In this document: positions 15,934 to 64,000 of the stretch, piece by piece
Layout: each line of letters starts with the position of its first letter
Position numbering within the stretch: the first letter of the stretch is position 1
Source: Octopus vulgaris
Taxonomy: Eukaryota
DNA length: 64,000 bases
NCBI GenBank assembly: GCA_951406725.2
Contig: OX597816.1
Span: 11,408,001-11,472,000 of the forward strand
Reading direction: 5' to 3'
The notes under the pieces: generated by a model
The model's input: only the letters and a program-made list of their open reading frames with translations
Databases searched by the model: none
Told to the model about the DNA's origin: nothing
Translations under genes and position numbers: made by a program

Positions 15934-16671
15934 AATAATAAATATTAGGGAATAAATCCAAACTTACAGGGAAAAATCAGATTTAGGATTGAATCCAATT
16001 TTATAGTAAAATATATTATATTAAATTAGAGACAAAACCACTATTAGGCAAATCATACAATGAAAAACTTAAGCCAATACATAAGATTATTTAATTTATC
16101 ATCATCATTCATCATCATCATCATTTAGCGTCCGTTTTCCATGCTAGCATGGGTTGGACGGTTCTGCTGGGGTCTGTGAAGCTAGAAGGCTTCATCAGGC
16201 CCAGTCAAATCTGGCAGTGTTTCTACGGCTGGATGCCCTTCCTAACGCCAACCACTCCGTGAGTGTAGTGGGTGCTAACGGACACGAAACGGGGCGGTGC
16301 TGGCAACGGTCGCGAAACGGAAATTATATTATTTAAATATATAACAAAATTATTAAAAAAATATAATCAATATATCACTATGATCGTTTCATGGCTGTTA
16401 ATTTCTTTAAATTTTCGAGTTACAGTCATTCATCAGGTGGTTTAAATATTTATCTTGGTGAGGTTTAAACCACCTGATGAATGATTGTAACTCGAAAATT
16501 TAAAGAAATTAACAGCCATGAAACGATCGTAGTGATATATTAATTATATTTTTTTTAATAATTTTGTTATATATTTAAATAATATAAATTAAATAATCTT
16601 ATGTATTGGCTTAAGTTTTTCATTGTATGATTTGCCTAATAGTGGTTTTGTCTCTAATTTAATAATATAAT
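15934..16671. mobile_element. Fold-back PLE-type pseudo-LTR insertion (family A); left arm interrupted by a SINE at 16099-16320
   Basis: Inverted arms meet at a loop at 16447-16463. Flanked by (TA)n. Carries the gagacaaaaccacta family signature and an HHR in each arm. Confidence 0.8.
16471..16534 (+). ncRNA. Type I minimal hammerhead ribozyme
   Basis: cac-CTGATGA-atg...cat-GAAAC-gatc-GTA-gtg. Palindromic stem III (acgatcgt), GUA cleavage triplet. Confidence 0.7.
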
Positions 16672-17910
16672 ATATATATATATATATATATATGCATGCT
16701 AAATCAAGACCCACCTTAGACTCCTCACTCGTATCATTATCGAACCAAGAGTTTAACTACTATCTGTCCCTAGCACTTACTTAGTGTACCTGCCACTCTT
16801 TGGGTCTTCTAGATACCAATACCTCTCGTATATGTATATATATATGTGTGTGTGTGTGTGTGTGTGTGTGTGTGTGTGTGTGTGTGTGTGTGTGTGTGTG
16901 TGTGTGTATGTATGTATGTATGTATGTATGTATGTATGTATGTATGTATGTATGTATGTATGCATGTATGTGTGTATGCTAAAGTTTTCAGAAAAAGAAA
17001 TCAACCAGCCAACATGCACATTCCAAATACAATCTGTAAGTGGAGCAGTAAAAATATGTAATGGTTGTAATTTTTAATGTGAATTTGTTTTGTTATCTCC
17101 ATTCAAAAGATGAAGCATTGTATCTTTGGTAGAACAAGCTTCTTCCTTACAGGAAGATTTCAAATCACTAAAAAATAGAAGGAAACATAAGTATATAAAT
17201 GTATATATGATGGCAGTGTGTTATGATAAACTTATGTTCAAAGTTTTAAGTGTGATATCATCCAAAAAAAAAATATATACATATATATATATATACTGAA
17301 TTTATACTTGCATGCTTTGATGATGATGTTGGTGGTTGTGATAGTGTTGATGCTGCTGATGCTGATGCTGATGATGATGATAATAACGATTTCAACAGCA
17401 AGAACAACGATCCAGAGAGTAGAAATGGTTTGATGTAGTTCACAAGACAAAATTTTTTATGGAAACAGAAATTCTTTACTTAATGTTAACAGTTTGATCA
17501 AACTTCTCCATCAAATTTTCTGAAGAAACCCAATCAAAACCCTTGACGCCCACCCCCACCCCTCACGCCTAGACGTTTGCTTCTGAACCACATGGTTTCA
17601 GGTTCAGTTCTGATGTGCAGCACCTTGGGCAAGTGTCTTCCACTATAGCCTAAGGCCGACCAAAGCATTCTAAGTGAATTTTACAAATGGAAACTGAAAG
17701 AAGCACTTCATATATATGTGTGTGTGTGTGTGTGTTTGTATTTCACTACTGCTTGATAAGTGGTGTTAGTGTGTTTACATCCCCATAACTTAGCAGTTCT
17801 GCGAAAGAGACTTATATAATGAAGCTTAAAATAAATTAGTACATTAGTAGTAATTAGTAAATTAGTACATTCATGCTAATTAGTAAATTAGTACATTTGA
17901 TTAGCATAAG

Positions 17911-18270
17911 ACTGGCTGTGTGGTAAGTAGCTTGCTTAGCAACCACATGGTTCCAGGTTCAGTCCCACTGCATGGCACTTTGGGCATGTGTCTTCTACTA
18001 TAGCCTCAGGCCGACCAAAGTCTTCTGAGTGGATTTGGTAGACGGAAACTGAAAGAGGCCCGTTGTATATATGTATAAATATATATGTATGTGTCTGTGT
18101 TTGTACCCCTCCAGCATCACTTGACAACCGATGCTGGTGTGTTTACATCCCCTTAACTTAGCAGTTCAGCAAAAGAGACCGATAGAATAAGTCCTGGGGT
18201 TGATTTACTCGATTAAAGGCGGTGCTCCAGCATGGCCACAGTCAAATGACTGAAACGAGTAAAAAAGTAA
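17911..18270 (+). mobile_element. SINE family 1 copy (a degenerate copy precedes it at ~17575-17835)
   Basis: Homology to 829-1236. Confidence 0.8.
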
Positions 18271-62200: not shown

Positions 62201-62952
62201 GATGATGATATATATATATACGTACATGCATGTGTGTGTGTTTGTGTCTGTGTTTGGCCCCATTCCTCTGCTTGACAACCAGTATTGATGTGTTTATGTC
62301 CTATGACTTAGCAATTTGGCAAAAGAGACTGATAGAATAATTACCAAGCTTTAAAAAACAAATAAGCACCAGGGCCAATTCATTCAACTAAAAATCCTTC
62401 AAGGTGGTGCCCCAGGTTGGCCACAGTCACATGACTGAAACAAGAGTGTCATGGCTGGAACATGTTTTATCATGGGTCTGCTTCTTCAGAACAAATAACA
62501 GACAGCATACTCCTAGAAGAAACAGGATACAGGTTCATGTTTAAAGGAAGAAACCATTTAAGACAACTGCCTTCAGTTTCAATAACAGCTGGCAGAAATG
62601 TTAGCAAGCTGGGCGAAATGCTTAGCAGAATTTCATCTGTCTTTACGTTCTGAGTTCAAATTCCGTCGAGGTCAACTTTGCCTATTATCCTTTTAGGGAT
62701 CAATAAATTAAGTACCAGCAGCATTCTGGGGTCGATCTAAGTCCCTGCCCTGCCAAAGTATTCTTATTTAATGAATAACTATCCAAATAATCTTCTCCTC
62801 CTTCTTACCGTTCAAAAATTGAACCTACAATTGCTAGGTCATGACTGCAGTGCCCTTACCACTTGGCCATGTTCCTTCATTATATATATATATATATATA
62901 TATATATATATATATATATATATATATATATATATATATATATATATATATA

Positions 62953-64000
62953 AATAATAAATATTAGGGAATATGCGTATATTGAGGGAGTATATGTATC
63001 TGTTGTGTGTGTGTTTTGCGTGTGTGTGTGTTTGTGTGTGAATGTGTATATGGGTTTGTTATTTAGGTTTTGGGATGTATGTGTTAATTTGTCTGTGTGG
63101 GGAGGGAGTGGGTTTTTGGTGTATATTGAGGTTTATAAGTTAGTATAGGTATGTGTATAGGTGTGTGGTTTACGTGTGTGTATTTGTGTGTGAATGTTTA
63201 GGTTAGGGGGATTGCTATATAGGTATGTTATAGAGTTTAGTAAAGGGAGATTTTATCATTATATGTTTTTATGAGTTTTGGTTTATCATGGTAGGTTTGT
63301 TAAGGAATTCGTAGTAATTTGTGTCTATTTGTGATGTCTGTTGTTTTATTGCATTGTTTCATTCATAATTTTTAAGTAGTGTTCGTTTTACCAAGTGAAT
63401 ATAATTTTTAATTCCATTTATTCCATTTCTCCGTTCATAATTTTAAGTGATGTCCGTTTTCTAGAGCGTGAATGTGGGTTGTATGTGTGTGTGTGTGGGA
63501 GTATGAATAAGTATTGTGTTGAAGTATTTAGCTATTTTATTTATTTATAGTTGCCTAGACGTTTTTATGTGGATGTATAGGGATATATATATAGGTGTGT
63601 GATTTAGTGTATGTAGTTAGATATGGTTATATATAATTAGGTATATGTGTATGGGTGTATATATAGTTTATTATTATATTATTATTATTTTTTTGTTTTG
63701 TTTTATATTTTATATTTTATATTTAATTGTTGATAGGTTTATTTTAGTTTATATATTGTTTATATATTGATTATATATGGATTATATATAGGTTATATAT
63801 GGATTATATATTTATATTTTTTCATTCATACTTTAATTATTTTAAAATTATTATTTTTATATTTTAAAATATTGATATTTTAGATTGGAAGTCCACCTGA
63901 AGATTGTCGATCAAGACAAGAAACAATTGTAGTGGCGGTTTTTTAGACTATTTATTAAAATTTTATGTATTGATTAAGTCTTTCCTTGTTTGTTTTGCAA
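62953..64000 (+). mobile_element. Longer PLE-type family A element running off the window end
   Basis: Starts after (TA)n with a 20-bp inverted copy of the family 3' end (ataataaatattagggaata). An ~0.9-kb G/T-skewed interior follows, then an HHR and pseudo-LTR similar to 25849-25955. Confidence 0.7.
63893..63935 (+). ncRNA. Type I minimal hammerhead ribozyme
   Basis: ccac-CTGAAGA-ttgtc-gatcaa-gacaa-GAAAC-aatt-GTA-gtgg. All stems are perfect. Confidence 0.88.

Follow-up and report, generated by a model that had tools for sequence, protein, structure and literature searches.

Penelope-like elements (PLEs) leave a characteristic anatomy at their insertion sites, in which an inverted, 5′-truncated copy lies beside the 5′ end and a tail is present at one end (PMC8557442). 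Elements of the Hydra clade, including the octopus family Hydra-1_Obim, use (TA)n targets and carry hammerhead ribozymes (PMC8557442). Truncated PLEs give pairs of minimal hammerheads on opposite strands, 100–700 bp apart, that show low activity even as dimers (PMC4209133). The protein of an anole PLE cuts and extends both strands at AT-rich DNA in vitro, and two internal starts of reverse transcription bound the tail (PMC11167929). In Penelope, the promoter and start site are located inside the repeat (PMC2377424). Here we analyse a 64,000 nt stretch of the Octopus vulgaris genome (contig OX597816.1, G000:C3:11408001-11472000, referred to as the window), in which a first-pass annotation had noticed several head-to-head palindromes with hammerheads. 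Judged from their sequences, these palindromes are very probably 5′-truncated 3′ ends of several PLE families, each joined head-to-head to a usually tailless inverted copy.

Self-comparison recovered inverted repeats at each of the eight places at which palindromic insertions had been seen (16011-16675, 23819-24291 including TA flanks, 25662-25992, 32209-32988, 40649-40755, 43397-43437, 47170-47353 and 49189-49722). Loci and families are named by window position. As the first-pass annotation had stated, one arm bears a tail at every named locus (about 77, 62, 77, 99, 55, 66, 75 and 25–30 nt in positional order), and the hammerhead-sense strands are directed outward from the centre. A self-written type I hammerhead descriptor, applied with shuffled-sequence controls, gave 9 hits in the window versus 0.17 in 60 shuffles. 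Eight of these hits lie in elements (15934, 25669, 49152 and 63897, and two each in 23924 and 32110), and the ninth, at position 399, is probably due to chance. The claim that each palindrome carries a hammerhead stands for most of them, which have a canonical core with stem III words (ACGATCGT, ACAATTGT, ACGTACGT and ACGT) that agree with those noted earlier. It fails for 47095, which has no core, and for 40594, which retains only the half from stem III onward; 43400 has a hammerhead-like fold with a non-canonical G3-C8 core. In the left arms, 25669 and 49152 have broken cores, and the core of 15934 shows a mismatch in stem III. Six canonical-core loci in 64 kb (seven with G3-C8) amount to about one per 10 kb, fewer than the one ribozyme locus per 6–7 kb that had been estimated. 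An Rfam scan of the window named no hammerhead family and only microRNA-type hairpins (150 of 234 matches listed).

Copies of each family were taken from the best-scored genomic matches in an assembly of 2.8 Gb and 227 contigs (best 40 scored, at most 30 fetched per search; fetched loci carry L numbers). The families had been described as not aligning with each other. The 3′ ends of 15934, 25669, 47095 and 63897 align at 84–90%, and a stub at 39913 joins this group, whose features are as follows.

15934-16669, unstranded: fold-back formed by the 3′ end of a Hydra-type PLE from a subfamily that is sister to the 25669 family; tail 87% identical to the autonomous copy L093; 30 genomic copies with varied junctions.
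16471-16534, plus strand: predicted type I hammerhead with palindromic stem III ACGATCGT; mirror copy at 16376-16439 on the minus strand with the stem III mismatch.
25672-26069, unstranded: fold-back of the 3′ end of a 6.3-kb Hydra-type PLE; 94% identical to the pseudo-LTR (pLTR) plus tail of L093.
25849-25891, plus strand: predicted type I hammerhead with stem III ACAATTGT; the left-arm copy is without part of its core.
39913-39985, minus strand: remnant of the 15934/25669 3′ end, absent from the earlier list and identified by 3′-end alignment.
47095-47345, unstranded: fold-back of a 25669-family 3′ end, cut downstream of the hammerhead and hence without a core; tail at 47095-47169.
62952-64000, plus strand: 1.1-kb 5′-truncated copy of the 6.3-kb PLE (3′ untranslated region (UTR), pLTR, hammerhead at 63893-63935), tailless.

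The tail of the 15934 fold-back occupies 15934-16010 on the left arm and the junction is near 16445; a common dispersed repeat is nested in it at about 16100-16320. The 25669 fold-back has its centre at about 25825, its tail at 25993-26069 on the right arm, and (TA)n on both sides. The copy at 62952-64000 ends about 30 nt past the window in (TA)n and carries a 25-nt inverted tail stub at its 5′ junction. Walking upstream from 25669 via this copy led to a young family that includes the parent. In L093, pLTR and tail are followed by an uninterrupted 841-aa open reading frame (ORF) with reverse transcriptase (RT) and GIY-YIG endonuclease (EN) motifs, a 3.5-kb 3′ UTR and a second pLTR, with a period of 6328. 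An 840-aa ORF lies between 3.4-kb inverted arms in L094. The protein search gave 146 matches among 143 scored candidates, many of them 99–100% identical and several with open frames of more than 800 aa, together with a second group at about 56% identity. In the P0001 ORF, YRDD is at 360 and YIG at 734. Database comparison of P0001 returned 19 matches at E<=1e-20, 18 of which share DKT and YRDD; one partial match to P0001 is named from Octopus bimaculoides.

A second Hydra-type parent was traced from 23924, and 40594 belongs to another TA-targeted family.

23924-24134, unstranded: 3′-end fold-back of a second Hydra-type PLE, whose unit measures 5.19 kb; 100% identical to the pLTR plus tail of L299/L300.
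24063-24111, plus strand: predicted type I hammerhead with a longer, near-palindromic stem III; mirror copy at 24008-24056 on the minus strand.
40594-40751, unstranded: fold-back of a further TA-targeted family, truncated within the palindromic stem III of its hammerhead and hence without a core; tail at about 40594-40648.

The tail at 23924 extends to about 23984, and both arms are cut just 5′ of the hammerhead. L299 and L300 have a period of about 5190, with the RT/EN ORF directly after the tail; the ORF is frameshifted in both fetched copies, and L299 carries the RT/GIY-YIG motifs of P0001 across a frameshift. In most of the 30 copies of the 40594 family a hammerhead core is present just upstream.

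Partial tandem pLTRs, an inverted 5′-truncated copy and a one-sided tail were seen in L093, L094, L299 and L300 and in the copy maps, and the predicted hammerhead lies within the pLTR, as judged from descriptor hits versus shuffles. The ORFs of P0001, L299 and L193 share RWK (as RxKWK or RxRWR), DKT, a CxCx5C linker, and CxxC and CxH around E and N, and have neither a CCHH motif nor an IPCxC core. By these motifs the autonomous parents are EN+ PLEs of the Hydra clade. They resemble the published members (PMC8557442) in the RWK-like, DKT, CxCx5C, CxxC..E and CxH motifs without IPCxC core, in the (TA)n targets, in the hammerhead form (cugaNgaU-stem-Ugaa with palindromic stem III) and in the inverted 5′-truncated copy with one-sided tail. 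They differ in unit size (5.2 and 6.3 kb, with long 3′ UTRs rich in simple repeats, versus mostly <3 kb) and in tail length (55–100 versus 30–40 nt), and the present families show clear pLTR tandems and many young, near-identical ORF copies. The sequences of their hammerheads are also distinct from that given for Hydra-1_Obim (PMC8557442). L193, L194, L199, L196 and L195 (e.g., G000:C2:168267500-168277400) form a further Hydra-type group with ORFs of 843–962 aa and an RT about 56% identical to P0001; some of these ORFs sit between inverted arms of 2.6–2.9 kb.

A different type of PLE accounts for the fold-back at 49152.

49168-49737, unstranded: fold-back of a Poseidon-type PLE 3′ end that comprises a tRNA-like module, (AAT)n and a minimal hammerhead, with the short tail carried by the left arm; located outside (TA)n.
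49470-49542, plus strand: tRNA-Arg-like module with A-box-like (49477-49487) and B-box-like (49520-49531) stretches; mirror copy at 49335-49405 on the minus strand.
49635-49680, plus strand: predicted minimal hammerhead, GAA-ACGU-U, with no separate loop III; mirror copy at 49234-49279 with a G8A change.

TA-rich flanks had been ascribed to all of these insertions. This is correct for the Hydra-type families, in which (TA)n follows the tail ends in 29/29 (25669 family) and 27/30 cases, and not for the 49152 family, with (TA)n at 1/20 tail ends. In the latter, a spacer of about 30 nt separates the EN stop codon from a 73-nt tRNA-like module, which precedes (AAT)n, the minimal hammerhead and a short tail; the module follows the EN stop codon in 27/30 EN-selected loci. 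Upstream frames contain DKG, YVDD and IPCxC..YxGET motifs; translations of L375, L394 and L186 assign the family, by motifs, to Penelope/Poseidon, with DKG, YVDD and a CCHH-type EN without the linker zinc finger. All ORF copies met are broken and 91–93% alike. With this family, three are tied to PLE ORFs, which bears out the suggested link to PLE pseudo-LTRs.

Ten module heads were compared with 30 genomic tRNA genes for six amino acids, and tRNA-Arg(TCG) in L315 scored best (mean local score 57 versus 28 +/- 4 for shuffled sequences), so that the Arg isotype is assigned provisionally. ARAGORN on 30 loci and Rfam on one head made no tRNA call. The module coincides with the start of short copies. 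When EN-selected loci and arms truncated 3′ of the head are left out of the count, the start lies at −10..+9 relative to tRNA position 1 in 32/45 arms that carry the head and at −7..+8 in 23/33 short loci (hand count). A native five-pair hairpin at tRNA position 1 could account for symmetric junctions. Single arms and asymmetric joins also begin at that spot, and a structure that stalls RT would leave ends on its 3′ side. The start of the short copies is likely set by RNA polymerase III (Pol III) initiation or RNase P cutting at the module. The genome sample described below contains about five loci of this family in 400 kb, none of which matched the EN region. The start of most short copies at the module suggests that the family makes copies resembling short interspersed elements (SINEs), i.e., a PLE-mobilised SINE.

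The 49152 family shares with Penelope/Poseidon elements (PMC4209133, PMC11167929) the DKG/YVDD RT, the IPCxC-type GIY-YIG, the minimal hammerhead in the pLTR, opposite-strand pairs from truncated copies and a tail set by two RT starts. Unlike them, it has a tRNA-Arg-like module about 30 nt past the stop codon, at which most short copies begin. The succession of a Pol III-type module and a hammerhead in a short, high-copy repeat is known from the schistosome Sm-alpha/Sj-alpha repeats (PMC6765202); here, in contrast, the module belongs to the 3′ end of an ORF-bearing PLE, and the copies show PLE tail and inversion and not tandem arrays. Open-access full texts yielded no PLE with such a module. 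A search of the open-access literature by element name, with repeat databases (Repbase, Dfam, SINEBase) outside its reach, found no published octopus tRNA SINEs.

In the families 25669, 32110, 23924, 40594 and 15934, 3′ ends are fixed and centres are variable. Among the best 40 loci of the 25669 family, the tailed arm ends at 244–247 of the 247-nt query, and the inverted arm stops at or near 167; 5′ ends and centres vary by locus, and many loci have no inverted arm. Inverted arms stop near 72 of 135 in the 23924 family, where 5′ ends are also variable, near 54 of 109 in the 40594 family, and near 382 of 481 in the 32110 family, which includes a few loci tailed on both arms. Since centres differ between copies and 3′ ends are fixed, the palindrome appears to be made anew at each insertion and not to be self-copying. 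In L022 the tailless arm is longer than the tailed one, which simple snap-back of one strand cannot make; this argues for an RNA template for both arms. Regarding the 5′ edge, the 25669-family loci L002-L030 had been selected because they extend to about −28. Among them, 27 tailed arms terminate at −40 to −18 relative to the core; L026, which served as the reference, and an arm of L022 run beyond this range.

These observations are consistent with a mechanism in which the GIY-YIG endonuclease would cut both strands of an AT-rich target, as inferred from the anole PLE in vitro (PMC11167929), and RT would extend both target ends on PLE RNA, a distal start yielding the tailed arm and a proximal start the tailless arm. 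Both cDNAs would end early and then be joined at their truncated ends, so that each insertion would involve two reverse-transcription events. The join may often occur at short palindromes such as stem III, as in L003 of the 25669 family and in 40594. The hammerhead, 30–300 nt upstream of the RT start sites, would be carried along. Transcription from inside the pLTR may also explain where many short copies end: they would reach the 5′ terminus of such an RNA and so represent the first few hundred transcript nt. In the 49152 family the tRNA-like module would probably determine this RNA start, through either Pol III initiation or an RNase P cut.

Folding of read-through RNA paired the core in four of five fold-backs (P unpaired <=0.001); in 25669, whose left arm has a deletion, the core was partly unpaired (0.55). 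On this prediction, a long hairpin would bury the core and keep the hammerhead inactive when a fold-back is transcribed by read-through.

The first-pass annotation had favoured a retrozyme-like system, that is, non-coding units cut out by dimeric hammerheads, circularised and re-inserted as palindromes. As a general explanation this is improbable, and one family of the window comes close to it.

32110-32988, unstranded: fold-back of a non-coding head-to-tail unit of about 600 bp; tail at about 32110-32208.
32711-32801, plus strand: predicted type I hammerhead with a 60-nt stem-loop II and stem III ACGTACGT; mirror copy at 32396-32486 on the minus strand.

A tandem period of 597–602 bp was seen in 6/6 loci (L203-L208, picked for showing a junction), with at most two units, a PLE tail and (TA)n ends, and no ORF; in L204 two intact predicted hammerheads stand in tandem. 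The 3′ end of 32110 matches sequence downstream of the ORF in L195 at 69%. The family is the only retrozyme-like one in the window and probably a non-autonomous PLE. In the evenly spaced sample, L331/L454 (G000:C1, ~20,001,900-20,004,900) looks like a classic non-LTR retrozyme: it is a TA-flanked, 359-bp tandem array in which five hammerheads share one strand and an inverted arm carries two more. This PLE-type inversion fits mobilisation by PLE machinery, and retrozymes have been interpreted as non-autonomous derivatives of PLEs in a 2026 preprint (10.64898/2026.07.22.740005). Both the 32110 family and the L331 array resemble non-LTR retrozymes in their ORF-less tandem units with type I hammerheads (PMC7229834, 10.64898/2026.07.22.740005); 32110 deviates in its unit of about 600 versus 150–450 bp, its one or two units, and its PLE tail and inversion (PMC7229834). 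Isolated hammerheads are predicted to gain 4.6–12.4 kcal/mol as dimers, with an extended intermolecular stem III in 4/6 folds, a point in favour of the retrozyme reading. The earlier mention of minimal, dimer-type hammerheads and of a very high copy number is supported. ORF-less tandem units of 150–450 bp are not what the other palindromes lead to: 15934, 23924, 25669, 40594, 47095 and 49152 either extend into a UTR or ORF or lack a tandem unit, and families other than 32110 continue upstream into long UTRs and ORFs without a further unit. Their centres vary, and each strand of a fold-back has at most one sense hammerhead. In addition, 5′ ends are not clustered at the cleavage site in our small samples, and insertion in vitro did not need cleavage (PMC11167929).

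Even less probable are fold-back DNA transposons, miniature inverted-repeat transposable elements (MITEs) that target TA and contain hammerhead-like words by chance. The short, palindromic, TA-flanked, high-copy insertions have the outward traits of MITEs, but their ends are asymmetric, centres are variable, many single arms occur, and arms run on into RT/GIY-YIG ORFs, so this reading is largely refuted. One hairpin of the window may belong to this class: 26844-27098 (inverted repeat span 26830-27111) is symmetric, with 127-bp arms, lies beside (TA)n and is without tail or hammerhead, and it has one diverged relative among the fetched loci (L016). An assembly or library artefact from snap-back chimeric reads, which the near-perfect centres of some palindromes might suggest, is just as improbable, since arms differ by several per cent, a repeat is nested in one 15934 arm, and the same tail boundary is found on different chromosomes and fits published PLE anatomy.

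Several points weigh against the reading of the palindromes as truncated PLE 3′ ends. Family queries that begin near the junction favour copies cut at that junction. The unselected sample of 5′ edges, taken from the flanks of unrelated loci after a search of the genome with the tail only had given no matches, is small (13 arms, −32 to +123). The young 23924 family has no hard 5′ edge, and most of its best 30 copies run far upstream. The clade assignment is based on motifs rather than on a tree, and Pfam scans of six ORFs or fragments gave neither an RT nor a GIY-YIG family; the silence of Pfam on the ORFs of P0001, L299 and L193 also implies that routine domain annotation will probably overlook such elements. 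No ORF was found for the 15934 subfamily, which is linked via its shared 3′ end only, nor for the 32110 family, and no parent ORF for the 43400 family. The long copies of the 40594 family (L451/L452) extend more than 1.1 kb upstream with weak traces of a Hydra-type ORF only.

To estimate hammerhead abundance genome-wide, forty evenly placed 10-kb stretches (400 kb) were scanned. The descriptor gave 31 hits versus 1.4 in 15 shuffles; a single tandem array accounts for seven of them, and about four appear to be chance matches. As the first-pass annotation had asked to be checked, hammerheads are enriched in fold-backs: 12 of the 31 hits lie in fold-backs that cover 3.86% of the sample, an approximately tenfold enrichment, and 7 of 35 sampled fold-backs hold a hit. 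The fold-back caller is conservative and missed two of the window's own cases. A hand count gives about one hammerhead locus per 20 kb, and about 20 loci per 400 kb extrapolate roughly to 100,000 or more hammerhead loci genome-wide. This is near the 120,000 loci of the axolotl genome (PMC7229834).

The 43400 family differs from all others in its core.

43212-43443, unstranded: sense arm with tail (43212-43416) on the minus strand, accompanied by a very short inverted arm; the 5′ edge is fixed in this family.
43357-43407, minus strand: hammerhead-like fold with swapped core pair G3-C8 (GUGAnCA ... GAA AAUAUU U); stem II is decayed in the window copy.

The family fold has a 7-bp stem I, a 5-bp stem II and a palindromic AAUAUU around GUGAnCA...GAA and does not match the canonical core C3-U-G-A-N-G8-A ... 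G-A-A ... U-H. In 26 aligned copies G3 is present in 26 and C8 in 25, so that the 3-8 pair is kept but swapped, a count that is biased by a query which itself carried that core; no sister with a canonical core was among the copies met by chance. In the predicted helices 92.9% of cells pair, versus 30–54% in slid controls. Covariation does not exceed that of shuffles (113/500), and one stem II pair is broken in 17/26 copies. A subfamily with intact stems is young, since it has at least 36 identical copies. About 17 of 30 copies begin at one 5-nt word and none continues into the long form (hand count). In long copies (L114:290-330, L204, L457) a branch-point/pyrimidine/CAG word is located exactly at the 5′ edge of the short ones. 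A 3′ splice site behind this edge remains a lead, as the supposed first exon in L288 turned out to belong to another repeat.

A PLE ORF near a G3-C8 copy in L453 was considered as the parent and rejected as a separate element with its own 3′ end. This element (L453:2695-4703, minus strand), which is presumably Neptune- or Nematis-like, has a cysteine-rich linker and many copies at about 90% identity.

Hammerheads with a U3-A8 pair and palindromic stem III ACGCGT were found at L199:9464 and at L114:2594 and 1203, so that the genome holds C3-G8, U3-A8 and G3-C8 cores. U3-A8 cores are known in nature (PMC3088659, PMC4209133). For G3-C8, a search of the open-access literature met the pair only as a laboratory variant, in one further paper and in PMC11167929.

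The core pattern of the palindromes is thus the published PLE insertion layout and of little weight alone, encountered here at high density and from new Hydra-type and Poseidon-type families. What may be new are the tRNA-headed short copies, the predicted G3-C8 core and the 600-bp non-coding tandem unit. We tentatively put forward a combined reading, as a real possibility that falls short of probable: a Poseidon-type PLE with a captured tRNA-Arg Pol III promoter would spawn a PLE-copied SINE, numbering tens of thousands of copies that bear the tail and inversion of a PLE in place of the 3′ end typical of long interspersed elements, next to a young TA-flanked family of G3-C8 hammerheads and about 100,000 hammerhead loci. 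If true, short tRNA-headed elements that move with the help of a PLE would be a further kind of SINE-partner pairing, a natural G3-C8 hammerhead would widen the known core variation, and about 100,000 loci would preserve PLE start sites and transcript 5′ ends as a dense natural record. With young Hydra-type families, intact ORFs and thousands of short paired insertions, PLE inversion and tail formation become testable by junction statistics and in vitro.

Three further features of the window were noted. The stretch 56283-57026 is a 98% inverted duplication with 264-bp arms and a 220-bp spacer; it consists of common dispersed repeats and has no relation to the hammerhead families. A decayed, coding-like stretch at about 25020-25450 reads like part of what we take to be a Helitron-type helicase. 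Self-comparison also revealed a tandem repeat with a period of about 170 bp at about 7476-9000.

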